DNA of 64,000 bases from Nitrospirota bacterium (GCA_029261135.1 JAJDBX010000074.1:92235-156234), one strand, 5' to 3'. Counted from the first letter of the stretch, positions 2,556-51,476 are shown. Program-made: numbers and translations. Notes: a model not told the origin generated them from the letters alone.

Positions 2556-3518
2556 TTATATCACACTCAATTCTTTCTTCAAGCGCATTATCCGGTCTGC
2601 ACATTGCTCCGTAGACTCCTCTTCGTCCAGGTCAATCCAGTGAATATTCGGGTCTGAACGAAACCAAGTCATCTGGCGTTTTGAAAAACGTCGTGTATCA
2701 CGCTTTAAGATTGCAATGGCCTCGTCAAGACCCTGCTCTCCCATGAGATGAGGAATCATCTGTCGATATCCCAAGCCACGCATCGCAGGAAGATCGACCG
2801 TGAACCCGGAGGCCAAAAGCCCTTCGACTTCTTCTACAAGGCCCGATTTGATGTAGTACTCCACACGCGTGTTGATCCGCTGATAAAGATCATCCCGATC
2901 CCGTCTTAAGCCAATGATCGTGTGGGCCGTCTTCGCACTCACCTTCATTTCAGCGTCTTCGGAATGGATTTCCGAAAGAAGTCTCCCAGTAAGATGCTTG
3001 ACTTCAAGCGCTCGAATAATCTTTTGTAAATCTTTGGTGTGGATCTTTTCAGCTAAAATAGGATCTACTGTAAGCAGATCACGGTGGAGTCTGCCTTCTC
3101 CTTCTGATTTTTCCCGTTCCCTTAAGCTCTCACGATATTCCCAATCTGCCGGAGGCCCTTCCCAAAGACCGTACAAGAGGGCTTTAATATAAAGGCCGCT
3201 TCCGCCTTCAATCAGAATATTGTTCCCTGTTTGCTCTAAGCGGCCAATCACTCTTTCTGCTGCCCTTTTGTAGGATCCGGCAGAATAAAATTGATCCGGC
3301 GGAATCAAGTCGATGAGGTGACGCTTGACGCGTTTTCTTGCATCGAGACTCGGCTTCCCTGTCCCGATTTCTAACTTTTGGTAAATCTGCCTTGAGTCGG
3401 CAATAATGATATCGGTCTGAAATTGCGCTGCTAAGATCTCTGCCACTGCGCTTTTACCCACAGCAGTCGGACCAACAAGAATCAGCCAGGGTTTCACAGG
3501 GCGTATTTCATCTTCCAT
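2556..3518 (-). CDS. miaA: tRNA dimethylallyltransferase
   Basis: 320 aa. P-loop GPTAVGKSAVA and IIADSRQIYQKLEIGTGKP. Lies directly downstream of mutL, as in the classical mutL-miaA arrangement. Confidence 0.9.
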   Translation of the reverse strand: MEDEIRPVKPWLILVGPTAVGKSAVAEILAAQFQTDIIIADSRQIYQKLEIGTGKPSLDARKRVKRHLIDLIPPDQFYSAGSYKRAAERVIGRLEQTGNNILIEGGSGLYIKALLYGLWEGPPADWEYRESLREREKSEGEGRLHRDLLTVDPILAEKIHTKDLQKIIRALEVKHLTGRLLSEIHSEDAEMKVSAKTAHTIIGLRRDRDDLYQRINTRVEYYIKSGLVEEVEGLLASGFTVDLPAMRGLGYRQMIPHLMGEQGLDEAIAILKRDTRRFSKRQMTWFRSDPNIHWIDLDEEESTEQCADRIMRLKKELSVI

Positions 3519-8799: not shown

Positions 8800-10125
8800 T
8801 TAACGAAGAGACCATGACGGGCTGGTATTGTTTGCAGGGTTTGATGTTAATTTACGCATATGGGTTCCATCCAAGTGAATCGAAAAAATCTGACTTTTCC
8901 CCAATCGGTTTGATGAAAAAACCAACTCTCTCCCATTTTGAGCCCACGATGGAGATTCGTCGTCCCAGCGCCCACTTTCAGTAATCGCAATCGATTGTGT
9001 CCCATCGGCACGGTCCGCACAAATCTTCAGTCGCCGGTCTTTATTGCGACAGGCATAGGCAATCCAATCACCTTTGGGCGACCATGTTGGAGATGTATTA
9101 TAGCTCCCATCAAAAGTCAAGCGGTTCACATTTGCACCGTCCACATCCATAATATAAATCTGAGGCCCTCCGCCACGGTCGGATGTAAATGCAATTTGCT
9201 TCCCTGTCGGAGACCATGTCGGAGAAAGATCATCTGCTGAATTGAATGTCAGTCGCTTGAGCCCGGTTCCGTCTCCATGCACTAGGTAAATCTCCGCATT
9301 CCCATCTTTGGTCGTCGCAAAGGCAAGTCGATCTCCGGCAGGAGACCAGGAAGCAGAGAAATTCAAACCGGGATACGACGCAATTTCATTTTTTGATCCT
9401 GTTTTTAAATCAAGAATATAGAGATTCGGGTTACCATTTCGATAAGAGGTATATGATATTTTTTCTCTGTCCGGAGACCACCTCGGAGAAATGGCAATAC
9501 TATTGTCTCTGGTAAAACGAAATTTATTTGCGCCGTCATAATCCATAATATAGACTTCTTTTTTTCCTGAAAGGTCTGAGATATATGTAATTTTTGTCTG
9601 AGCAACTCCTTTTTCTCCCGTAAAATGAAGCGCTAATTTATCAGAAAAACGATGGGCCAAATGACGCAGCTTATTCATTCCACCAAAAATTTTAACCCCA
9701 ACAACCTGATCCCCATTCGCCGTCTCATAGGCATAACTTTCAAGCATCCAGCCATTTTCTTGGGATTCAAGCTTCGCCCAAAGAATCGCCTGTACTCCTG
9801 CTTTTAAAGCCTTCGTTTTCATCGCCATACTCGGGGTTTCGTTGGAATCTACCGACAAACCGATGTCCCTCGTTTCAATGAGCTCAAAAAAATGAGAACG
9901 CTTCAGGTCAGAACGAAGTACATTTTCTACGATCGAAACTTCTTCTTTATTCTCAGGGGTGCTTTGGAAGGGCATAATCATGACAGGAATTTTGCTAAAA
10001 CCCCTACGTTGCATTTTCATAAATACTTCGGCTTCATCCTGTTCGGCTGCATTGATGTCTGCACTATTGATGACTGCACCGGCCAATAAAACAAATATAA
10101 ACATAAAACCCCGTCTTCGGAACAA
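8800..10125 (-). CDS. tolB: Tol-Pal system beta-propeller protein TolB
   Basis: 441 aa. Signal peptide, then repeated PxWSPDG-type blades (PRWSPDREKISY, ASWSPAGDRLAF, PTWSPTGKQIAF, PTWSPKGDWIAY). Confidence 0.9.
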   Translation of the reverse strand: MFRRRGFMFIFVLLAGAVINSADINAAEQDEAEVFMKMQRRGFSKIPVMIMPFQSTPENKEEVSIVENVLRSDLKRSHFFELIETRDIGLSVDSNETPSMAMKTKALKAGVQAILWAKLESQENGWMLESYAYETANGDQVVGVKIFGGMNKLRHLAHRFSDKLALHFTGEKGVAQTKITYISDLSGKKEVYIMDYDGANKFRFTRDNSIAISPRWSPDREKISYTSYRNGNPNLYILDLKTGSKNEIASYPGLNFSASWSPAGDRLAFATTKDGNAEIYLVHGDGTGLKRLTFNSADDLSPTWSPTGKQIAFTSDRGGGPQIYIMDVDGANVNRLTFDGSYNTSPTWSPKGDWIAYACRNKDRRLKICADRADGTQSIAITESGRWDDESPSWAQNGRELVFSSNRLGKSQIFSIHLDGTHMRKLTSNPANNTSPSWSLR

Positions 10126-10127
10126 AT

Positions 10128-11171
10128 CTACATCTCCTCCGTCACAACAAAATTCATATAAACCGTGAGCATTCCACCACCATAAGCCTTTGGAAGCGGA
10201 GGAAGCGGGTGTGCGGCATAAACGGCGCGCATGGCTGATTGATCAAAAAAGTGATTGCCTGAGCTTTCTTCAATCGAGACCGAGGATTTATCAATACTGC
10301 CGTCTTTCTTCACAACAAAACGAATCACCAGCTTATCCCCACTAGAAGCCACAGGGGGAGGCGCCCACTGCCATCGAATTTTCTGATCGACCTTCTGTAA
10401 ATAATTGGGGAAGAAAAAAGATGTGCCGCCACTTAAAACGCCAACACCTTTAATCCCAGGAGAGACGCTGGCTTTCATCGAATGGGTGCTACCTTCCGAA
10501 TCAGAAGAACCCGATAAGGGAGCCTTCTCTTCCCCTGAATCCACTTTCGATGGGGATTGTTCTAACGAATCTTTCGATTGCGGATTTTGCACAGCTTGTT
10601 GTGGTTCTGTTGCTTTTCCAGGTAAAGGGCTTGAGACAAGCGAGTGCTTTTGAATATCAATTTTGGCTGTCCTCGTTTTCTTAACAGAACCCTTCTTTGG
10701 CTTTGTGATGGATTTTGATTCTGGAACTGCCAGCATTTTTTTCTGTTTTTTCCACCACTCTTGAAGCCGCTCAGGATCATCTTCTTCTTTAGGCATTGCC
10801 TTAACTGAAGTTCTCGGCGCTCGAGTGACAGAGGGTAGTTTTATCGTTTTAGCGGAAGTCGGTTTTTTAAGCGAGGCAAGCGTTTTGGCCCGTTTTGACT
10901 TTGAAGTGGAAGGCAGCGATTTCACTTTAGATCGGCTTATTTTTTTTGACGCAGTACCACTCTCCCCCAAACTCGACACTCTTGATTCCGGTATAATGAG
11001 GGTGACTTGAAATCCTTGGAAAGATCTGGGCTGTGAAGCAAAAAAGACCTGATTAACGACCATGAAGAGAAATAAAAAAACGTGCAGTAAGACAGAGAAA
11101 CCCATCATCCTCGACAGCCCTTGATGACGGCGTTCAAATAAAGGTCCCCAGGCTGCACGCAAAACACTCAC
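10128..11171 (-). CDS. TolA/TonB-family energy-transducer protein
   Basis: 347 aa. One N-terminal TM segment (FSVLLHVFLFLFMVV), a long K/S/P-rich linker and a C-terminal TonB_C-like block (YLQKVDQKIRWQW...GDKLVIRFVVKKDGSI). Sits between tolR and tolB. Confidence 0.65.
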   Translation of the reverse strand: MSVLRAAWGPLFERRHQGLSRMMGFSVLLHVFLFLFMVVNQVFFASQPRSFQGFQVTLIIPESRVSSLGESGTASKKISRSKVKSLPSTSKSKRAKTLASLKKPTSAKTIKLPSVTRAPRTSVKAMPKEEDDPERLQEWWKKQKKMLAVPESKSITKPKKGSVKKTRTAKIDIQKHSLVSSPLPGKATEPQQAVQNPQSKDSLEQSPSKVDSGEEKAPLSGSSDSEGSTHSMKASVSPGIKGVGVLSGGTSFFFPNYLQKVDQKIRWQWAPPPVASSGDKLVIRFVVKKDGSIDKSSVSIEESSGNHFFDQSAMRAVYAAHPLPPLPKAYGGGMLTVYMNFVVTEEM

Positions 11172-42026: not shown

Positions 42027-42098
42027 GCGGGAATAGCTCAGTGGTAGAGCATCGCCTTGCCAAGGCGGAGGTCGCGGGTTCAAATCCCGTTTCCCGCT
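42027..42098 (+). tRNA. tRNA-Gly (GCC)
   Basis: GCGGGAATAGCTCAGTGGTAGAGCATCGCCTTGCCAAGGCGGAGGTCGCGGGTTCAAATCCCGTTTCCCGCT. Anticodon loop CT-GCC-AA. CCA is not encoded. Confidence 0.9.
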
Positions 42099-42126
42099 CT
42101 AATAAATCAATAACTTACAACTTTTT

Positions 42127-43260
42127 TTAGGTTTTTCTATTTTCTGAGTGCAACCACGGTGCAACGGTAGCCTCAGAAGGAGGCGTTGCATCGTCTGCAA
42201 TTGCTTCGACGGCATCTCGTAAGTAACCAGGTGCGAGGTGGGCATATCGGAGGGTCATCCTCAAATTTGAATGACGTAATAGTAGTTGAGCCGCTTCAAT
42301 TCCTTTTCCTGCCATTACAATTCTTGATGCATAATCGTGACGTAGATCATGATATTTAAGATCCTCAATGCCTGTTTCTTTTAATATCTTTCTCCAGGCT
42401 CTTCCAATATTTGCGCCATCAAGAGCTGTCTTGCTTTCAGACAAAAGCACAAATTTTCCTTCACGGGGTAATTTCCAAAGCATATCTTGAACAACCCTAT
42501 TGATCGGAATAAATTTGACCCTGTCATCTGGTTTCTTTGCTTTTCCGTTATAGATTCTTAACTGGTTCAGCGATAAGTCAACGTCAGACCAGAGAAGGTT
42601 TCGGACTTCCCCTTTTCTTAACCCTGATTCACGAGCAAGAAGGCAAGCCGGATAAAGCCAAGAGGGGCCTTGCTTGGCAGCATCTTTGATCTTTATCCAT
42701 TCATCTCCGACAAGGTAACGCACACGTGGAGGAGCATCATCAAGGCTATCTAAATCGGTTGTAGGGTTTGAAGTAGTCATTCCCCATTTTATGGCTTTAT
42801 AAAAAGCAGACTTGATTACCGTTATTTCTCGTTTTACTGTTGAAGGTTGTACGGTCTTGAGTCGGACGGAGATATAATCATCAATAGTTCCCATGCCTAT
42901 TTGATTAAGTGGTTTGTCACTAATAATCTCCAAAAATTGATTTAAAACCTGGTACTCTCTTTTTCCTTGCTTTGCCAGCCGATAACCGTGACGATTCATA
43001 AACACTTCCACCAGTTTGCTCAACCGGGGTGATTTTTGCGGTTGTGGGGTCTGCACCTCCTTTATTTTTCTGTGGAGGATCTCTGAGATCATGGTCTTGG
43101 TGTGAGTTGCTAGCGAGCCGATGGTACCTCGATATCGTTTTCCTCCGCGTTGTGCGGGATATTGGAAATGGTAAGCCCACAAAAGCCCCTTATCTCTCTT
43201 GGCTTGGCTGACCCTGACGGTCACACCCAGTATCTTCAGACTAAATGGCTGTTTTCTCAT
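42127..43260 (-). CDS. tyrosine-type site-specific recombinase (integrase)
   Basis: The track ORF extends to 43341. The ATG at 43260 (MRKQPFSLKILG) has a GGAGG 8 nt upstream and overlaps the upstream stop (ATGA). The catalytic C-terminus is LARESGLRKGE, HDLRHDYASR and LRYAHL. Confidence 0.85.
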   Translation of the reverse strand: MRKQPFSLKILGVTVRVSQAKRDKGLLWAYHFQYPAQRGGKRYRGTIGSLATHTKTMISEILHRKIKEVQTPQPQKSPRLSKLVEVFMNRHGYRLAKQGKREYQVLNQFLEIISDKPLNQIGMGTIDDYISVRLKTVQPSTVKREITVIKSAFYKAIKWGMTTSNPTTDLDSLDDAPPRVRYLVGDEWIKIKDAAKQGPSWLYPACLLARESGLRKGEVRNLLWSDVDLSLNQLRIYNGKAKKPDDRVKFIPINRVVQDMLWKLPREGKFVLLSESKTALDGANIGRAWRKILKETGIEDLKYHDLRHDYASRIVMAGKGIEAAQLLLRHSNLRMTLRYAHLAPGYLRDAVEAIADDATPPSEATVAPWLHSENRKT

Positions 43261-43418
43261 TCTATTTCCTCCACTCTTACTTTTGATATCTTGAGCTGAT
43301 GACCTTCTATTTTGAGTGATACGAAATCGCCGGAATCCCATTTCAATTGATTGATAAGTTCTGGGGGAATAGTGACAACAAGGGTGCCTGAAACAGTGCG
43401 AAGTTTTCTTATGATCAT
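43257..43418 (-). CDS. AbrB/MazE/SpoVT-type DNA-binding protein (53 aa)
   Basis: Below the ORF-track size cut-off. My translation gives MIIRKLRTVSGTLVVTIPPELINQLKWDSGDFVSLKIEGHQLKISKVRVEEIE*, a looped-hinge-helix pattern. Its TGA overlaps the integrase ATG. Confidence 0.6.
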   Translation of the reverse strand: MIIRKLRTVSGTLVVTIPPELINQLKWDSGDFVSLKIEGHQLKISKVRVEEIE

Positions 43419-43505
43419 TTTTTTACCCGAATGGTTTTGAGGTGAATTCTCTTCTTTGTATTCATAAGAAGCATATGAATCATATACATGTCAGCCAAGA
43501 AAGAA

Positions 43506-43718
43506 TCAACATTTTTTTTGCCTCATATGATTTGAAATGTATGCACATATATCGCTTGGTCGGTAACGGACGGCTCGGCCCATCTTAACGGATGGAATAT
43601 CTCCTTTTGCTGTTTTTGCTTTAATGGTGGTCTCTTTCAGAGATAATACCTCTGCCACTTCTGACCGTTTCATCAGAGTGGATCTCTTAAACAGACTTTC
43701 CATTAGTAGATCTTTCAT
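43506..43718 (-). CDS. excisionase/AlpA-like helix-turn-helix protein
   Basis: Internal start MKDLLMESLF... at 43718 overlaps the methyltransferase stop (ATGA). The HTH pattern is MKRSEVAEVLSLKETTIKAKTAKGDIPSVKMGRAVRYRPSDICAYI. Confidence 0.6.
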   Translation of the reverse strand: MKDLLMESLFKRSTLMKRSEVAEVLSLKETTIKAKTAKGDIPSVKMGRAVRYRPSDICAYISNHMRQKKC

Positions 43719-44902
43719 GATTTCTTCGTTTCCTCGAACTTGTCTTTTTGTTTTAATCTTGCCCTTATTATTTTCACATATTCGAGGTCTTTCTCTATGA
43801 GAATGCAATCTCTTCCGGTTCTTTTACAGGCAACCCCCGTTGTTCCACTTCCTCCAAACGGGTCAAGCACAATACCGCCTGTTGGGGTTTTGGTGAGTTT
43901 ACAGAGGTATTCCATGAGCTTGACCGGTTTTACAGTTGGATGATGATTATGATGATTGGCCGTTCCTGACCCGTAGGAGACACTCTCTTTGCCGGTTTTT
44001 GTTTTACGCACCAGTGTTGTTATTTTTTCCTCATATCCCATATTTCTTTCTGTTTTGCTCGCCTTTGCACAATAAAAGAATCTTGAAGCACCACCCCTAC
44101 TCACCTCACTTTGTTGATCTAATATTTTTGCCGCTTCTTCGTCTAAGATGATGTTGGAAGGGAAGCGGCCCAAGCTCTGTGGATATCCCTTCCCTTTTTT
44201 TCTTTGAGCAACTATCGGGACATCACTCTTTTTGTATTCCCCCTGTGTCTGATCTTTTTCTCTTGTATCTATCCTCCCCCCGTCAATATTCAATCCGGCT
44301 ACCCCATGTTTTAAAGCATTTTGGGCGTATGTTCCTTCATTTGATTTTACGGCGACGATGATCGGTTCATATGCGGGTTTCAGACCGTGAGACTTCCACC
44401 CGTTCCAATGTTGGGCTTGAGGGGATGCCGGAGCGGTGATATCAAATCCTTTTTTCCTTGATTGAGTGCTACCCACTCCACCCTTACCGACCCCCATAGT
44501 CTTTCTTTCCACTCCCGCCATTTTATCCAACTGTTTGCTAATATCTGTCGCTTTGGGGAACCCAGATCCGTAGAGCCACATGATGCAGTCTTTGAGAATC
44601 CAACCGGACTCTTCAATATGTAGTGCCATTTTGTGTTGTGTTCTTGAACCGGCAAAACACAGCAGTGTCGTACCCGGTTTTGCGACGCGCAGCATCTCTT
44701 TAAATATCTCAACGCTTGGAACATCGTAATCCCATTTTTTGCCCATAAACGAGAGGCCATAGGGCGGATCAGTAATGATCGTATCAATCGAGTTTCCCTT
44801 CATCTTCCGCATGACTTCCAGACAGTCGCCGCGGGTGACTGTTATGTGTGTTTTATGGATGCTTTGGAGTTTTTTGATTTTTCTTTTCATGTTCTGTTTC
44901 AT
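43715..44902 (-). CDS. DNA methyltransferase, N6-adenine/N4-cytosine (beta-class, PF01555-like)
   Basis: 395 aa. Catalytic motif IITDPPYG comes first, then the SAM motif VLDPFGGSGTTGVA near the C-terminus. Confidence 0.85.
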   Translation of the reverse strand: MKQNMKRKIKKLQSIHKTHITVTRGDCLEVMRKMKGNSIDTIITDPPYGLSFMGKKWDYDVPSVEIFKEMLRVAKPGTTLLCFAGSRTQHKMALHIEESGWILKDCIMWLYGSGFPKATDISKQLDKMAGVERKTMGVGKGGVGSTQSRKKGFDITAPASPQAQHWNGWKSHGLKPAYEPIIVAVKSNEGTYAQNALKHGVAGLNIDGGRIDTREKDQTQGEYKKSDVPIVAQRKKGKGYPQSLGRFPSNIILDEEAAKILDQQSEVSRGGASRFFYCAKASKTERNMGYEEKITTLVRKTKTGKESVSYGSGTANHHNHHPTVKPVKLMEYLCKLTKTPTGGIVLDPFGGSGTTGVACKRTGRDCILIEKDLEYVKIIRARLKQKDKFEETKKS

Positions 44903-44924
44903 GTTGGATGAATCTTGTAAGGGA

Positions 44925-46076
44925 TCATGTATGCCTTCGTATTTTTTTCATTATTTCCTGAACCACGTTTACCGTTACCGCATTCCCTAAAGCCTTATAC
45001 CTCCGTGAGTCACTGACTCCTTTCGTCCACCCGTCCGGGAATCCTTGCAATCGTTCGCATTCGGTCGGTGTGAGCCGTCGGATTTTGGGCGGTTCACCGA
45101 CAAAATGGACATCGGTCGTGTTGTGGTGTTCCGCTATCACGGTTGGCGCGATAAACGGCTGCCTCATACCTCCCTGCATTGTGTTGAGCGTCGGGCTGAT
45201 TCCGCTTGCCCCATATACTCTGTTGTTTGAATGCTTCGGATGATTCATTTGCGCGACCCCAGAATGAGGTCGTCCACACAGCCTCCGCCTCTTTTCAAGG
45301 CGCTCATCACTTCTTTCTTCCGGTGAAATTTTGCTCTGAACCCGTTGCCGTTGCGTTTGTTTCTCCTGTTGTATTCCATCAGCTTTTTCACTCTGGCTTT
45401 GGAGAGGAAATACTTGGGGTCTGGGTGTTCCTCTAAGATGTCCGACAATGAACACCCGCTCCCTGTTTTGGGGGACGCCGAAATTCTTGCTGTTAAGCAC
45501 CTGCCACCCGAGGTCATACCGAAGTTCATCAAGCGTGGAGATGATTGTGTAGAATGTGGCCCCTTGGTCGTGAGATAGAAGCCCTTTGACGTTTTCAAGC
45601 AGTAAAAGGCGTGGTTGTTTTTCCCTGATAATCCGAGCGATTTCAAAAAACATTGTGCCTCTTGTGTCCGCAAATCCCGCCCTTTTTCCGGCAATGGAAA
45701 ATGATTGACAAGGAAATCCTCCGACCAAGAGATCAAAGTCCGGTAATTCTTTTGCGTTGATTTTTGTGATATCGCCATAGTTTTTGTGTGTGAAGTGCCG
45801 TTCATAGATTTGGATTGCGTATGGGTCGATTTCTGAGTAGCCAATACAAGTGAGTCCGTGTGAACAGATGTCAAAGCATTCGCTACATTGTCTTTTCGTA
45901 TTTCCAATTCCTTGTAACCTTTGTTTCGTGTTCTTAATGCACAGCTCTTCATCTGCTTGCTCAATACCGAGTTCAAAACCACCGATGCCGGAAAACAACG
46001 AGAGGTATTTCATCCCTTGCGAATTGGAGGCGTGGTGATTGCGCTCATAGGCGGTTTTTGGGTTATGACGAGTCAT
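44925..46076 (-). CDS. DNA (cytosine-5)-methyltransferase
   Basis: 383 aa. Motif I LFSGIGGFELG, IV GGFPCQSFSIAGKR, VI ENVKGLLS, VIII QNRERVFIVG, IX RRLTPTECERLQGFPDGW and X GNAVTVNV. The variable region looks abnormal (see findings). Confidence 0.8.
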   Translation of the reverse strand: MTRHNPKTAYERNHHASNSQGMKYLSLFSGIGGFELGIEQADEELCIKNTKQRLQGIGNTKRQCSECFDICSHGLTCIGYSEIDPYAIQIYERHFTHKNYGDITKINAKELPDFDLLVGGFPCQSFSIAGKRAGFADTRGTMFFEIARIIREKQPRLLLLENVKGLLSHDQGATFYTIISTLDELRYDLGWQVLNSKNFGVPQNRERVFIVGHLRGTPRPQVFPLQSQSEKADGIQQEKQTQRQRVQSKISPEERSDERLEKRRRLCGRPHSGVAQMNHPKHSNNRVYGASGISPTLNTMQGGMRQPFIAPTVIAEHHNTTDVHFVGEPPKIRRLTPTECERLQGFPDGWTKGVSDSRRYKALGNAVTVNVVQEIMKKIRRHT

Positions 46077-46110
46077 ATAATTTCACTCAGAAACAACAGA
46101 ACGTATTGAT

Positions 46111-49071
46111 TTATCGAATGAAACGGCAGAAATCATAGACCAGCCCCACGGAGACTTTTTGTCTCTCATTTTCTGGGATTTCCTGCTCAATTCGGTCTTG
46201 AATTTCAGTCATTTTCTTTTCTTCTGTCGTGAGCGTGATGACTCGGTGATATCCTGCGTTGAGGCATTTGATAATATTTTGAAGTTCTTGATTAGCTGAT
46301 GTCGTAACAGAAATTTCAACGGCAATTCGCTTACCCTGCTTTTCTATGCCAAGGTCTACCGACTCGCGTCTGCCGGGAATTTGCTCTTCAATAGTCGCTT
46401 TGAAGCCGTTGCTTTCGGCCTGTACATTAAGCACTGACTGCCAGTACCGGTGAAGTTGTCCGCCTTTTCCGCTTAGCGAAACATGTTGCTGAGGAAGGGC
46501 ATCAAAACCCTTTTTGGTGAGGAATAAATACTTGGCTACCCGTGAACCGATTCCGAGGTGGGTTTCCACCTCGGTGAGTAATCCGTTCTCTTTGAGTTTT
46601 CTTTTGAGTCGGTCGCCCATGTAGGCGCTCAAGCTCTGTGCTTTGTACAGCTTTGTCACGGATAAAGTTGGGTTGTTGAATACACATTCTAGAAATGTTT
46701 TTTCCTGGACCAAAAGTGTTTCTATGGATTGGGTTTTCTTTTTTTTAGTGTTTGTGCCAGAGGCGATAGCCGATGTACTGAGCGCCCGTTCTACTTCTTC
46801 CAGTGGTCGGCAGAAATTCTTTCTGGAATGTTTGATGATTTCATCTTTGTAAGATTTCTGCCGGTGTCTCATCTTATGAAGGGACGCGTTGAAAGAATCA
46901 GTTGCCCGTTCCATGCGGATGATGGCCTGTCCGACCGGTAAGTCTTGAAGGTCTTGTGCGGTAAATTGTCCGAGTTGTTTTTGAAGGTAAAGCGCGTCAT
47001 TGACACCGCACCGCAACACAATCAGTGTCCCGATATTTCCCAACAGAGCTGCTGAGATGTCTCTATGGAGATATTCGGTCATCTGTGTCGCCACCACCAG
47101 TGCTACGCGGTATTTTCTGGCTTCAGAAACCAAGCTCGTAATGTTTGCGACATTTGAGCGGGAACCGGCAAAATTTTGGAACTCATCCACGATAAGAGTG
47201 TAGAGTTTTCTTTTGGCTCTGGGGATGGAAGCGCGTGCCATTGTTGCGATCTGAAATTTCGACAAAAGGAAGGAACCGAGCAAAAAAGCTGCGTCTTCAC
47301 CCAAAGCACCCTTGCTGACGTTGGCAATAACTATTTTCCCAGAATTGATCATCTCAAAAAAATCGAGCTTATTTTTCTGAGCAATGATATTTCTCACAAT
47401 GGGATTGTCCACGAATTTTGAGAGCTTATTAATAATCGGATCAATCGCGCCTTTGGGGAGCGCAGAGAATCGGGTCTCCCAAAATGCTCTGATGTCGGGA
47501 TCATCTACCGTTGCAATCACATTCTGTCGATAGTTCGGGTTTAAGAGAAGTCGGGGTATATCTCGAAGAGTTTTCTCGCCGTCCGAATACAACAGCGTAT
47601 TGGTGCAAGATCTCAAAATCCACTCCATCCTTGGCCCCCATCCATCGGCAAAGAACTTTTCAAACGACACGAGCACGTCCGAGCACAACATCTCTTTTTC
47701 CCGCTGGTCTGAGGCATCCAAAATGTTAAAGGCCGGTGGGAAAGAACGATCCGTGAAATTGCAATAGATGGTGTCAGCAAGCCGGTGTTGTGGAATGAGA
47801 GATAAAAATTCTTCTGCGGCATCTCCATTGGGGTCAATGAAGGCGCATCCGTAGCCATTATTTATGATGTTCAAGAAATGAGAAAGAGCGGTGGTCTTGC
47901 CTGTTCCGGTGCCACCAAAGAGGGCGACGTGGCGGGTCAGCCATTCCTCAGAGATTCCGACTTCGGTTTCCACGCCTCTGTGCTGGTTTGTACCTAAAAT
48001 GACCAGACTGTTTTTTGTCGCACGTTTTGGTGCCGGTGCGGAATGCCGCGCGGTTTCGACTTTTTTGGTTAGCGCATCAGCTCCGGGGATATGGGCGAGT
48101 GCAGAAAGCTCCCCGGCGTTTAAGAGCATCCCCGTGGAGCGGTTTGTTCGGGAACGTATGCTTGAAGATGGGTAGGTTTTTTTGAGTGGTATAAACCCAT
48201 TTTCACTTTCATACAGAGTAAAAAAACTCTCCAGTCTGTCTAAGATTGTGTTGGTGGAACCGAAAAGCCGAAGGGAGACTGCAAAGAATGGCTTACTTAC
48301 TTTATGTTCTGCGATTTTTGGAAGATCGGCTATGTCATAGAAAGGAGAACGAGAATTATCAAACTCGTCGCGGGATGCCAGTGCTATGTTATTTTTCCAA
48401 TTCTCTTTCACCGGTGTGAAGAGCACCTGCATTCCTCCACATGCTCCTGTCGGTACACTTTCCAGCGCTCCAATCAGAGAGCGGAAAGGGTCTGTTTTGA
48501 ATTCCGATGTAATGGGAAAGAAATGGGAAGTTTTGAGGCGGTAGCACCTGACAACAAATGGTGAAATAATTTGTGCTTCTTTTAAAAGGTCGGTTGCTGG
48601 ATATACTTCCGATTGCGGAAAATGAGTGAGAGTTTGAGAGATTGCCCCATGCACGTCTTTTACGGGAACTGACAATTGAAACGATATAGTCTCTCTAAAT
48701 GCGATGACCTCAAAGCTCCATATACCTCGCATGGAGAGGGACGCAAGCCACTGCCCCGAGAGATAGGAAGAACCCTTTTCTTCAGAGCTTGGACAAATCC
48801 TTAATGTCTGGAAGGATTGGAAAGTGGCTTTTTCAATAGAAGGTTTCTTTTCAGATTTGTCAAAAAGAAAGTCAAAGAAATGTGGGTGCTTTACCTCATA
48901 GGTAAAGGCAGAAAAAGGAGGCTCAAGCGCTATGGCATAGGGGTAGATGATGGTTCCTCCTTCTCCCCGTTCCATTTCATAAACAACCTTTTGTCGTTGT
49001 TGTTCAAACATATTCATAGCGTTTTCCGTTAAATTAGGATTGTGGTATCGCATCTGGGGCAGACCATCCAT
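46111..49071 (-). CDS. large TraD/VirD4/TrwB-type P-loop ATPase fused to wHTH-like and nuclease-like C-terminal domains
   Basis: 986 aa. Walker A FGGTGTGKTT, Walker B LYTLIVDEFQNF and RKYRVALVVATQ. The ~380-aa N-terminal region carries no motif I recognise. The C-terminus has LKRKLKENGLLTEVETHLGIGSRVAKYLFLTKKG and an E..D..ExS core (IEEQ...ESVDLGIEK...RIAVEISV). Confidence 0.7.
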   Translation of the reverse strand: MDGLPQMRYHNPNLTENAMNMFEQQRQKVVYEMERGEGGTIIYPYAIALEPPFSAFTYEVKHPHFFDFLFDKSEKKPSIEKATFQSFQTLRICPSSEEKGSSYLSGQWLASLSMRGIWSFEVIAFRETISFQLSVPVKDVHGAISQTLTHFPQSEVYPATDLLKEAQIISPFVVRCYRLKTSHFFPITSEFKTDPFRSLIGALESVPTGACGGMQVLFTPVKENWKNNIALASRDEFDNSRSPFYDIADLPKIAEHKVSKPFFAVSLRLFGSTNTILDRLESFFTLYESENGFIPLKKTYPSSSIRSRTNRSTGMLLNAGELSALAHIPGADALTKKVETARHSAPAPKRATKNSLVILGTNQHRGVETEVGISEEWLTRHVALFGGTGTGKTTALSHFLNIINNGYGCAFIDPNGDAAEEFLSLIPQHRLADTIYCNFTDRSFPPAFNILDASDQREKEMLCSDVLVSFEKFFADGWGPRMEWILRSCTNTLLYSDGEKTLRDIPRLLLNPNYRQNVIATVDDPDIRAFWETRFSALPKGAIDPIINKLSKFVDNPIVRNIIAQKNKLDFFEMINSGKIVIANVSKGALGEDAAFLLGSFLLSKFQIATMARASIPRAKRKLYTLIVDEFQNFAGSRSNVANITSLVSEARKYRVALVVATQMTEYLHRDISAALLGNIGTLIVLRCGVNDALYLQKQLGQFTAQDLQDLPVGQAIIRMERATDSFNASLHKMRHRQKSYKDEIIKHSRKNFCRPLEEVERALSTSAIASGTNTKKKKTQSIETLLVQEKTFLECVFNNPTLSVTKLYKAQSLSAYMGDRLKRKLKENGLLTEVETHLGIGSRVAKYLFLTKKGFDALPQQHVSLSGKGGQLHRYWQSVLNVQAESNGFKATIEEQIPGRRESVDLGIEKQGKRIAVEISVTTSANQELQNIIKCLNAGYHRVITLTTEEKKMTEIQDRIEQEIPENERQKVSVGLVYDFCRFIR

Positions 49072-49442
49072 GAGAATATCTTTCCGCAGTTACTACAGGG
49101 GCTGAAGGCGTGTTTCTCGTAATGCGGATTTATCCCGCATGAACATCTATAACGGCTCCTTAGATTCAAAACAAAACCGCACCCGAGACAATACGCGTCG
49201 GAGATGATTAGCTCTTGTAACCAACGCGAAACAGGTATCAGTCGAAAGGTTAGTACATGGAGAACGAAAAGAAATACCACCGCCTCGGCAAGTTGGTTGT
49301 CCTTGATTCGATTAGCTTCAGATGTCCAGACTATGCAGGTAATGAGAATTGCAAGATGGTAAAAAAAAGTGATGATACGCCGCGCTCCCCGTACACTGAA
49401 TATTTGAGGACTGTAACGAGTGGGTTGTTTTTGATATCTCAT
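49029..49442 (-). CDS. membrane protein with two TM helices and a C-terminal double zinc ribbon
   Basis: 137 aa with a GGAGG SD. Hydrophobic segments are IITFFYHLAILITCIVW and AVVFLFVLHVLTF. The C-terminus is CLGCG...CSCG...CSNCG...CPRC. Confidence 0.6.
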   Translation of the reverse strand: MRYQKQPTRYSPQIFSVRGARRIITFFYHLAILITCIVWTSEANRIKDNQLAEAVVFLFVLHVLTFRLIPVSRWLQELIISDAYCLGCGFVLNLRSRYRCSCGINPHYEKHAFSPCSNCGKIFSWMVCPRCDTTILI

Positions 49443-49443
49443 G

Positions 49444-49635
49444 CTAACGCCTCCATCTCATGCGTGGTCTTTGAGTCCTACCGCCACCTGATTTTTGACG
49501 AGTTCTTCCCCAAAGCAATAGAGCCAATCTCTTCACGGAAAAAACCATTGTCCTGTATGCAAGAGGACTCATTTTTTTCAAAACCGTAAGCGGGATGAAC
49601 AAAAAGACAAGCGCTGCTATACAAGTAACTAACAT
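49444..49635 (-). CDS. small single-pass membrane protein with an Arg-rich tail
   Basis: 63 aa. An AGGAGG lies 7 nt upstream of the ATG, inside the NYN gene end. N-terminal TM is MLVTCIAALVFLFIPLTVL. The stop lies 1 nt before the next ATG. Confidence 0.55.
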   Translation of the reverse strand: MLVTCIAALVFLFIPLTVLKKMSPLAYRTMVFSVKRLALLLWGRTRQKSGGGRTQRPRMRWRR

Positions 49636-50225
49636 CGGATTGCCTCCTTAATAGGTCGGAGGCAGTCAAGACCGATTTCAATGTTTGCAGTGATATGTGG
49701 TGAGGTTTTTGCGTTGAGCCGATACGCTGTTGAACCGGCAAGAGACAAGGTCGCAACCTTGCTTTGTGGCCTGATTCGTAAAATTGCTTCTGCGGTATCA
49801 GAAACGAGGTCTCCATCGCCACTTGCAAGAACAACCACGTCATAGTGGGATGAAATTGTGAGCGCTCCTGCGATGAAGCAGAATAGGTTATCGGCATTGC
49901 TTTTCCGCTCAGTGCCTTTATGGGTCTGTACTGTCTGTATGACTTTTGCGTGGGCCGTCCATCCGAGCTTTGAGAACTGTTCGCATCGTGCCGTTTCACG
50001 GGGCGGGTGAGCGAATATAAGGTAGCGAAATGCAGAACCCGTCGCCATGTCAATGGTCTGTCCTAAGCGTTCCCAGGAAATAGAGAAACCGAGATCTCGT
50101 GCTCCCGCATCAATGTTCTGAGCGTCTGAGATCACCAGCACATACTTGTCTCGTATGATTTCCAATGAGCCTGTTTCTTTTGCTATTTCTACGTTTTGCA
50201 TCCGATATTTTGTTTTGTAATTCAT
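49629..50225 (-). CDS. NYN-domain (LabA/DUF88-like, PIN-related) predicted ribonuclease
   Basis: 198 aa. Contains KYVLVISDAQNIDAG and NADNLFCFIAGALTISSHYDVVVLASGDGDLVSDTAEAI, the NYN acidic pattern. Confidence 0.7.
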   Translation of the reverse strand: MNYKTKYRMQNVEIAKETGSLEIIRDKYVLVISDAQNIDAGARDLGFSISWERLGQTIDMATGSAFRYLIFAHPPRETARCEQFSKLGWTAHAKVIQTVQTHKGTERKSNADNLFCFIAGALTISSHYDVVVLASGDGDLVSDTAEAILRIRPQSKVATLSLAGSTAYRLNAKTSPHITANIEIGLDCLRPIKEAIRC

Positions 50226-50268
50226 TGTTGTTCCTTTCTTTTCTTTGTTCTGTGAGGATTTATATAAA

Positions 50269-50298
50269 GGGAGAAGGGTTCTTTCGTTCCCTTCTCCC
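50269..50298 (-). terminator. hairpin plus U-tract between the vWA and NYN genes (terminator or attenuator)
   Basis: GGGAGAAGGG (50269-50278) and CCCTTCTCCC (50289-50298) form a perfect 10-bp stem with a 10-nt loop. The minus-strand transcript continues UUUAUAUAAAU. Confidence 0.45.
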
Positions 50299-50307
50299 TT
50301 CCAGCAT

Positions 50308-50949
50308 TCAACTGAACATCTTCTGTTTCATGAGAAGAAGATGGAGGATGGCTTCCTCAACGACCTGAACCTTGGTTTTATTTCCCATTGCCCATCCCAT
50401 TGAGGCAGAGAGGTCAATTACAAGCACGGTGGTTTCGGAGCGATGATGGAAACCGTTTGAGTTCCCGTTAGAGGAGAAGTGGGTAAGTGTATTGGTGAGT
50501 TCGCGGAGAGATTTTACCGGAACGAACTTGCCTCTATGTGTGGAAGCTGAAATTTTGCGGAGAGTTGATTCATCGAAGCTGTTCCCAAACCCGATGGTAT
50601 TGATATTAATATGGGATTTGTAAGCACGCTGAACCATAGGCCAAATTCCGCCAGGATTGACATTTGCTTCCCCATCTGAAAGAAGCCAGATCCTCCGCAA
50701 GATTCCACGTGGTGTTTTTTTGCACATCTCAATTCCAACGCGGAGTCCATCGGCGATATTTGTGCGACCCTTAACGTGTTTGTGGAGCCGTTGAGAACGT
50801 TCTTGCAGCCAATGCGCATGAGGCTCGGCAGGAAGAGCGATTTGAAATCCTTCTTCATTGAATCCAACGATGCTAATACGATCCGGTGCATGTACAACGT
50901 ACCGATGGTGTTGATTTGTTTTTTTGTTTTTAAATTTCAATCCAAACAT
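50308..50949 (-). CDS. von Willebrand factor A (vWA/MIDAS) domain protein with apparently permuted element order
   Basis: The track ORF runs to 51234. The ATG at 50949 (MFGLKF) has AAAGGAG 7 nt upstream. The middle of the domain is GRTNIADGLRVG, RRIWLLSDGEANV and ININTIGFG. The DxSxS start motif TTVLVIDLSASMG...KTKVQVVEEAILHLL lies at the extreme C-terminus. Confidence 0.7.
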   Translation of the reverse strand: MFGLKFKNKKTNQHHRYVVHAPDRISIVGFNEEGFQIALPAEPHAHWLQERSQRLHKHVKGRTNIADGLRVGIEMCKKTPRGILRRIWLLSDGEANVNPGGIWPMVQRAYKSHININTIGFGNSFDESTLRKISASTHRGKFVPVKSLRELTNTLTHFSSNGNSNGFHHRSETTVLVIDLSASMGWAMGNKTKVQVVEEAILHLLLMKQKMFS

Positions 50950-50968
50950 GATGTTCTCCTTTTTTGTG

Positions 50969-51011
50969 GAGTGAAGCAGAAACGGGCAGAAACCCCGTCT
51001 CTGCTTCACTC
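50969..51011 (-). promoter_or_regulatory. 18-bp RNA hairpin in the 71-nt spacer between the 88-aa gene and the vWA gene
   Basis: GAGTGAAGCAGAAACGGG (50969-50986) pairs with CCCGTCTCTGCTTCACTC (50994-51011) around a 7-nt loop. The single mismatch becomes a G-U pair only in the minus-strand transcript. No U-tract follows. Confidence 0.45.
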
Positions 51012-51020
51012 GGGAAATTG

Positions 51021-51287
51021 TTAATGATTGGTTCGAACGCCCCGCCACAGCTGAAATGGTCGTCTGTTTTGCCCGACGATCATCCCTTGACGGATGTTGC
51101 AGGCCCCGTGCGGACATGCGTAAATGAAGAGAAAGCCATACCTCTGGTGAGGTACCGTCCCAATGTGCATCATCCGACACGGGAGCAGGTGCTTCATCCC
51201 GTTGTTGCAGAGGAGGGAAAGGCTTTCCATCCACCTTGGTTTATTTATGTTTCTTTGGTACCCATTTTGTTTTTTGAATAGAGCCAT
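51021..51287 (-). CDS. small basic Cys/His-containing protein, unknown function
   Basis: 88 aa. Near-ideal SD AAAGGAGGTAATC-ATG. C27, C37, C58 and C63 plus several His residues. First gene of the minus-strand operon. Confidence 0.5.
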   Translation of the reverse strand: MALFKKQNGYQRNINKPRWMESLSLLCNNGMKHLLPCRMMHIGTVPHQRYGFLFIYACPHGACNIRQGMIVGQNRRPFQLWRGVRTNH

Positions 51288-51448
51288 GATTACCTCCTTT
51301 TTGGTTTTCAGATGATCTCGTTATCATCTTGTCCGAGCATAATCTGGTTCGTCTTATATTCTCAATTTGAATAAATTCATCTAAAATAATATCCATATGA
51401 AGGATTACTTTTAGAAAAAAATCCTGAGAAAGATATAAGAAGAAAATG

Positions 51449-51476
51449 TTTCAGGTGGAAATATTTCCACCTGAAA
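51449..51476. promoter_or_regulatory. perfect 28-bp palindrome in a divergent intergenic region (candidate operator)
   Basis: TTTCAGGTGGAAAT|ATTTCCACCTGAAA is a 14+14 palindrome with no spacer. It lies 80 nt upstream of the ECF S-component ATG and 162 nt upstream of the 88-aa gene ATG. Confidence 0.45.

Follow-up and report, generated by a model that had tools for sequence, protein, structure and literature searches.

Gene organization and order of the domain elements

The stretch of DNA analysed here (the window) comprises 64,000 nucleotides of a Nitrospirota bacterium (GCA_029261135.1 JAJDBX010000074.1:92235-156234), read on one strand from 5' to 3'. It contains an island (42027-51300) whose genes all lie on the minus strand and code for an integrase, two methylases, an ATPase, a zinc-ribbon protein, a NYN-like protein, a protein with a von Willebrand factor A (vWA) domain, and the small protein orf88. 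The present study concerns the vWA gene, which we call cpVWA (50308..50949, minus strand; 213 amino acids (aa) plus stop) and which an earlier note, made from the sequence alone, had described as encoding a vWA domain with a metal ion-dependent adhesion site (MIDAS) in an order that appeared circularly permuted.

The open reading frame (ORF) of cpVWA spans 50308-51234 on the minus strand, with 95 codons ahead of the true start, and this upstream extension overlaps the separate ORF of 88 codons (orf88) in another frame. An AGGAG ribosome-binding site read from the sequence (50956..50960, minus strand) lies 6 nt before the ATG at 50947-50949, and the family members begin at about the same point; based on this site and on the starts of the homologues, we place the start at the ATG at 50949, giving a product of 213 aa, and not at the GTG that would give one of 308 aa.

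Along the chain, the protein begins with a basic and variable tail, its putative new N-terminus (residues 1-22, 50884..50949; predicted local distance difference test (pLDDT) 60-73), followed by a long segment with the elements beta2-beta3-alpha2-alpha3-beta4-alpha4-beta5-alpha5-beta6-alpha6 (residues 23-160, 50470..50883), as assigned from positions 38-170 of the PF00092 profile and from the DSSP analysis of the predicted model. In this segment, RISIVGFNEEGFQIALP forms two strands in the AlphaFold2 (AF2) model (residues 24-30 and 34-41), the MIDAS residue T63 (50761-50763) sits in GRTNIADGL, the MIDAS residue D92 (50674-50676) sits in RRIWLLSDGEAN, both being invariant in the family, and ININTIGFG forms the strand at residues 115-121. 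A linker rich in G, N, H, and R (residues 161-171, 50437..50469), which would bridge alpha6, once the C-terminus, and beta1, once the N-terminus, leads to residues 172-213 (50311..50436). These hold beta1, the MIDAS loop and alpha1, with the DxSxS motif D179-L-S181-A-S183 at 50401-50415 within the beta1 segment, and end in ...KQKMFS, the putative new C-terminus; all these features are on the minus strand. The segment TTVLVIDLSASMGW...HLL spans residues 173-205 and is followed by 8 more residues and the stop codon, after which a spacer of 82 nt leads to the NYN gene, with no further vWA sequence. All the segments quoted in the earlier note were thus found in the order it had claimed, with the DxSxS segment last and 8 residues between HLL and the stop, and direct reading of the sequence agreed with its statement that a DxSxS is absent both from the 88-aa ORF upstream and from the 95-codon extension.

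Comparison with canonical vWA domains

Alignment to the Pfam profile PF00092 (VWA) gave 39.6 bits (cut-off 23.8), with residues 23-153 matching positions 38-170 of the 174 in the profile; cpVWA lacks the first 37 profile positions at its N-terminus and has them at its C-terminus instead. The match of the native protein to PF13519 was partial (36.3 bits, cut-off 27) and became complete and contiguous over the junction (1-107 of 107 positions) in the doubled sequence or in a de-permuted one, in which residues 166-213 were moved to the front. The profile of the cpVWA family matched the PDB chain 4rck twice and in reversed order (profile 177-192 to chain 21-37, and 20-155 to 60-210), and the de-permuted profile was colinear with this chain.

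An exhaustive profile search also returned small relatives with the canonical order (P0170, P0173, and P0175; 187-225 aa; annotated only as VWA), which share the MIDAS and are 32-41% identical to cpVWA over the whole domain after order correction, with the motifs LRxIxLLSDG, INIxTIGFG, and FDExLL..I...THxG in common. The canonical relatives run from beta1-alpha1 to alpha6, whereas cpVWA runs from beta2 to alpha1. Aligned to P0173 with BLASTP, native cpVWA gave two swapped high-scoring segment pairs (23-159 to 49-187 and 174-212 to 7-46), and the de-permuted sequence a single one, with 38% identity over 188 columns (7-187 of 187, E 2e-33). Similarly, hhalign comparison of 160 cpVWA family sequences with ten canonical-order relatives yielded two matches in the native order, namely Q16-158 to T42-186 (E 1.8e-44) and Q170-212 to T3-46 (E 9e-13, 97.8% probability), and one end-to-end match after de-permutation (180 columns, E 6.4e-56, 37% identity), the score rising from 276 to 345 in one colinear alignment once the C-terminal segment was joined to the N-terminal part. 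The breakpoint falls exactly in the alpha1-beta2 loop, where '...HKRRNF-PKDRLGCVLF' of the canonical relatives is matched by the end of the permuted chain, '...MKQKMFS', and by its N-terminal tail with 'APDRISIVGF' after it. The split and reordered profile match that the earlier note had suggested looking for was therefore obtained both in the profile search against 4rck and in the hhalign comparison with the canonical sister family. Judged by these alignments, cpVWA is a homologue of the vWA superfamily with another topology, in which the linear order starting with beta1 and DxSxS does not occur.

Predicted structure

From an alignment of 79 family sequences, AF2 predicted one compact domain (pLDDT 91.5; predicted template modelling score (pTM) 0.87; all five models at least 90), with a confidence of about 97 pLDDT for residues 172-211 and about 71 in the linker. 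The strands (E) and helices (H) of this model, E24-30, E34-41, H46-58, H65-77, E84-91, H99-111, E115-121, H127-135, E142-145, H148-160, E172-179, and H193-211, follow the vWA list shifted cyclically by one beta-alpha unit. The structure prediction proposed in the earlier note thus returned a single confident domain with all six strands, including a confident beta-alpha unit at the C-terminus; strands and helices alternate in it, in agreement with the three-layer alpha/beta/alpha architecture of vWA domains. In a Foldseek search against the PDB, all significant matches (E <= 0.001) were vWA domains (TFIIH p44, ANTXR2, ITIH, BatB, Rpn10, and others), with TMq values of about 0.5-0.55 over 130-150 columns, which is as much of a permuted fold as an aligner bound to sequence order can match. 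No solved structure recovered by Foldseek from the PDB has the permuted order, the best TMq being 0.56 over about 140-155 columns.

In vWA domains, the two chain ends adjoin each other on the face opposite the MIDAS, as in the integrin I-domains, which are inserted in a loop of their host protein. Because of this adjacency, a short linker suffices to bridge the old ends. The new ones fall in the alpha1-beta2 loop and would likewise lie opposite the MIDAS, which would leave the MIDAS face intact.

Conservation across the family

Among 5.8 billion proteins searched, we found 111 homologues, most of them 205-230 aa long and with 90-100% coverage of the query, and the order of the elements was identical in all sequences of two alignments, of 26 and 79 members. 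In both alignments, D23, T63, D92, D179, and S181 are invariant and the C-terminus follows the consensus ...ETTVLxIDLSxSM..KTKVxVVEEAxLHLLxYKQxxFS-COOH. The exhaustive profile search, covering 1.84 billion cluster representatives, gave 75 representatives at E <= 1e-30, most of them with one full-length match reaching the C-terminus of the protein, and similar matches were seen down to about E 1e-19. The counts that follow are based on 160 assembled members. The full MIDAS set (D179, S181, S183, T63, and D92) is kept in 155 of the 160, the chain ends exactly 8 residues past the L205 position in 142, and the alpha6-beta1 linker (L155 to E172) has 8-31 residues, with a median of 16. The N-terminal tail varies from 4 to 166 residues in the family and is rich in basic residues (21% K+R+H, 3% D+E). 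Some members (P0085 and P0088) are longer by 80-150 residues at the N-terminus, where a hydrophobic stretch resembles a membrane span, and therefore the new N-terminus can apparently take a membrane anchor.

Genome loci, located with a family alignment of 12 sequences, came from Latescibacterota, Acidobacteriota, Planctomycetota, Omnitrophota, and Alphaproteobacteria, and no family member was found in either the plasmid or the phage collections. The permuted order is common to more than 100 homologues from independent assemblies and at least five phyla, and is not due to chance. The homologue search suggested in the earlier note, which showed the same order and the same C-terminus throughout, also means that the DxSxS segment is not the start of a second domain truncated in this genome alone.

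Interpretation and alternative explanations

Based on these results, we conclude that cpVWA is a genuine circularly permuted, single, and complete vWA domain with a full MIDAS site, a reading to which we assign a probability of about 0.85. The chain runs from beta2 through alpha6, then through a linker of 8-31 residues joining the ancestral termini, and finally through beta1 (DxSxS) and alpha1, and the C-terminal strand would fill the central beta1 slot between beta2 and beta4 of the same chain. The earlier note had preferred a permutation to a truncated tandem pair, and every check it proposed that was carried out favours the permutation. Some observations weigh against our reading. Mean-field direct coupling analysis of 160 sequences (Meff ~124) was dominated by noise and gap columns and did not confirm the contacts, the couplings of D23 with K208/Q209 and between beta1 and alpha1 being suggestive only. 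AF2 was run on the monomer, in which closure within the chain and exchange of the strand between subunits are indistinguishable. The divergent permuted protein P0169 falls outside the main clade of the tree described below, which is itself crude. Besides, no functional name for cpVWA or for the NYN, orf88, and zinc-ribbon proteins came from PADLOC, PHROGs, or NCBIfam.

The sequence data would be equally compatible with complementation in trans, in which beta1-alpha1 is inserted in a neighbouring subunit to give swapped dimers or head-to-tail filaments with a MIDAS made of two chains, and the flexible linker of variable length, as well as the restriction of the model to a monomer, would accommodate such an arrangement. 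We nevertheless regard it as unlikely: AF2 places beta1-alpha1 within one chain at the confidence given above, and the joined ends are adjacent in canonical vWA domains, so that even the shortest linker suffices for closure within the chain. Much less credible still is the view that cpVWA is left over from a tandem pair or from a local rearrangement, one vWA gene having contributed its 3' part and a second, truncated only in this genome, its 5' part, or that it is an artefact of assembly or pseudogene formation. Proteins with tandem vWA domains do occur among the more distant relatives, but order, length, and C-terminus are the same in over 100 homologues that come from several phyla and from independent genomes and metagenomes, the MIDAS residues are strongly conserved, and no vWA sequence continues past the stop in the 82 nt before the NYN gene. 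The present gene is neither a truncated tandem pair nor a pseudogene or misassembly, as shown by the order and chain end conserved in independent assemblies. We likewise give very little credence to the idea that the C-terminal DxSxS is an unrelated motif or a small independent domain behind a degenerate vWA domain without beta1. Taken alone, the segment gives only weak Pfam matches (DUF58, E 0.13; VWA_CoxE, E 0.042), but residues 170-212 match the canonical N-terminal residues 3-46 with 97.8% probability, the hhalign score increases in one colinear alignment on joining, the segment forms a DSSP-defined strand in the AF2 model and is thus hydrogen-bonded into a sheet, and a vWA domain without beta1 would have a hole in the middle of its sheet.

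Regarding the origin of the permuted domain, 53 of the 54 permuted sequences formed one group in a neighbour-joining tree of de-permuted and canonical sequences, and eight of the ten canonical relatives another. Permutation by duplication and truncation classically starts from a tandem duplication, and in the distant tandem-vWA relatives P0180, P0183, and P0191 the family profile (positions 16-189) aligns over the repeat boundary. A single origin of the permutation is likely, judged from the tree, and tandem duplication is plausible as its evolutionary origin, not as the present state of the gene. The permutation would have arisen once, by duplication and truncation, with the tandem-vWA relatives as a possible substrate.

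Partner genes and the putative integrative element

Upstream of cpVWA lies orf88 (51021..51287, minus strand), which codes for a small protein with a CHCC set of zinc type (C27, H33, C58, and C63). A homologue search with the single sequence found none, and a profile search gave 20 homologues, none with a Pfam domain, in which the four residues are invariant, making the CHCC set a probable zinc site. The predicted fold (AF2, pLDDT 85) is an antiparallel sheet of four strands, for which a fold search returned no significant match, the zinc-sheet DNA-binding domains of WRKY proteins being weakly alike (E 0.4). Homologues of orf88 lie upstream of cpVWA in the loci L001/L002, L003, L007, L008, L017, and L018, and downstream in L004; orf88 stays with cpVWA in L017, where the NYN gene is absent.

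The downstream partner is a predicted nuclease of NYN/PIN-like type (49629..50225, minus strand; 198 aa), with a PF01936 score of 23.3 bits, just below the cut-off of 24.2 (E 1e-4), which is homologous to a Pfam-annotated NYN protein in L013. The residues D34, N37, N110-x-D112, SGDGD, and D187 are conserved in its family and fit the NYN signature, and because they are kept the protein is probably an active nuclease. A NYN-like gene belongs to the cpVWA locus in nine of ten genome loci, directly downstream in seven, upstream in L006, and about 900 bp downstream in L010.

Further along are a protein of 137 aa (49029..49442, minus strand) with a hydrophobic N-terminal half, from which a membrane location may be inferred, and C-terminal zinc-ribbon cysteines with weak zinc-ribbon Pfam matches, and a P-loop ATPase of HerA/FtsK/TrwB type (46111..49071, minus strand; 986 aa; PF10412, PF01935). 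Homologues of the 137-aa protein occur in L002 and in the canonical-order locus L015. The ATPase matched phrog_5156 strongly (1.4e-63) and, in part, PADLOC mad8 (1.4e-19) and the NCBIfam families CedD, HerA, and TraD; its homologues adjoin cpVWA in L002, L003, and L011, and the canonical vWA gene in L015. The start of the ATPase gene and the 137-aa ORF overlap by 43 nt. The P-loop core of the ATPase is flanked by about 350 residues on the N-terminal side and about 250 on the C-terminal side, the latter with a stretch resembling a helix-turn-helix (HTH; phrog_11046) and a motif, VDLGIEK...IAVEIS, that by eye resembles PD-(D/E)xK nucleases. The locus L011, from Rhabdonatronobacter sediminivivens, has two copies of cpVWA (2614-3207 and 10001-10594) about 7.4 kb apart, with the ATPase gene after one and the NYN gene after the other.

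At the other end of the island, a tyrosine integrase gene (42127-43341, minus strand) lies 28 nt from a tRNA-Gly(GCC) gene (42027-42099, plus strand), followed by genes for an N6/N4 DNA methylase (43715-44902, minus strand) and a C5 DNA methylase (44925-46076, minus strand). No direct repeat of the 3' end of tRNA-Gly (att) that would mark the far boundary of the island was found in the window; Rfam matched only tRNAs. Between the island and an ECF-transporter operon (51556 onward), a perfect palindrome of 28 nt, TTTCAGGTGGAAATATTTCCACCTGAAA (51449-51476), scores as a terminator-like hairpin on the minus strand, with no Rfam match there. The homologous loci also carry genes for integrases, Xis-type HTH proteins, Replic_Relax, and ParA, and some of them CRISPR adaptation genes or CBASS. 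In L016 and L017, the gene called downstream of cpVWA (9856-10407) is a translated CRISPR array with repeated FQSPQTGAVILS, followed by Cas2, Cas1, AEP-TOTE, and Cas6, and in L018 (6862-9810) the cpVWA-NYN pair adjoins a fusion of reverse transcriptase and Cas1, together with Cas2. The proximity of CRISPR genes may simply reflect clustering in mobile and defence islands.

Comparison with known systems

The canonical-order relatives share their partners with cpVWA: a NYN-like gene is a neighbour in L012, L013, and the contig of P0199, and L015 has, in addition, the ATPase and the membrane/zinc-ribbon protein. In L015 (8691-9365), where this canonical sister cassette lies beside a CBASS operon, the NYN-like partner has SGAAN for SGDGD and a changed first Asp-Asn pair, and is probably catalytically dead, as judged from these substitutions. 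The best solved matches to cpVWA are vWA domains of BatA/BatB and ArnB type (PDB 4rck, 3ibs, 4jdu, 5a8j, and 8s05), which have the MIDAS vWA fold but the canonical strand order and often N-terminal membrane anchors or extra domains, and are about 17-24% identical to cpVWA. The permuted cpRAS and YlqF/YawG GTPases (PMC2430557) resemble cpVWA in the cyclic shift of their motifs with the active site kept, but belong to another fold and family; the same paper names vWA only as a neighbouring domain.

As with cpVWA, the genes for the vWA proteins of the vWA-MoxR and vWA ternary conflict systems (Kaur et al. 2020, PMC7159879; 2021, PMC8195603) have an ATPase gene and genes of effector type as neighbours, frequently within mobile or defence islands. 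The ATPase of the cpVWA cassette is of the HerA/FtsK/TrwB class, unlike the MoxR AAA+ ATPase of the vWA-MoxR systems, and an assignment to the vWA-MoxR ternary system was rejected on the grounds that no island protein matched a MoxR, AAA_3, or AAA_5-type ATPase and the cassette has no VMAP component. MADS defence, in whose model mad6, mad7, and mad8 are mandatory (bioRxiv 10.1101/2023.03.30.534895), was rejected as well: among the eight island ORFs scanned, there were only the mad8-like ATPase and a weak mad2 match on a methylase, with no mad6 or mad7. The MADS paper makes no mention of vWA.

Implications for the vWA fold and for integrative elements

vWA domains with a MIDAS are much-studied interaction modules, present in integrins, complement factors, anthrax receptors, Rpn10, TFIIH p44, Mg-chelatase, and midasin. 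To our knowledge, their strand order has been treated as fixed, and we know of no description of a permuted vWA family on mobile genetic elements. Full-text literature searches for circularly permuted vWA or MIDAS domains gave nothing relevant, and the main comparative-genomics papers on prokaryotic vWA systems (PMC7159879, PMC8195603) do not mention a permuted vWA.

With modest confidence, we suggest that cpVWA would act as a metal-dependent protein-binding adaptor or regulator for its operon partners, a subunit coupling to the nuclease, the small zinc protein, and the ATPase. The cassette may serve either the transfer and maintenance of the element or defence and exclusion. It is also conceivable, though speculative and in our opinion rather doubtful, that the permutation is functional and not neutral, cpVWA being a switch or a polymerising scaffold that controls the NYN nuclease and the HerA/FtsK-type ATPase. 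With beta1-alpha1, and thus three of the five MIDAS ligands, on a flexible C-terminal tether, the metal site could be assembled, released, or exchanged between subunits, and orf88-cpVWA-NYN-membrane/zinc-ribbon protein-ATPase would constitute an undescribed conflict or transfer system of integrative elements.

A widespread natural permuted family with an intact MIDAS would mean that the vWA fold tolerates moving its central strand, and the canonical sister family in the same cassette would provide a matched pair for understanding the origin and the effects of circular permutations. The permuted form may also be a template for engineering vWA domains with new termini. The conserved cassette on integrative elements, consisting of the CHCC protein, the vWA protein, the NYN protein, the membrane/zinc-ribbon protein, and the HerA/FtsK ATPase, is itself uncharacterised. 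The finding bears on annotation too, as databases label the family 'VWA domain-containing' or 'Mg-chelatase subunit ChlD', and domain hidden Markov models call an N-terminal truncation.
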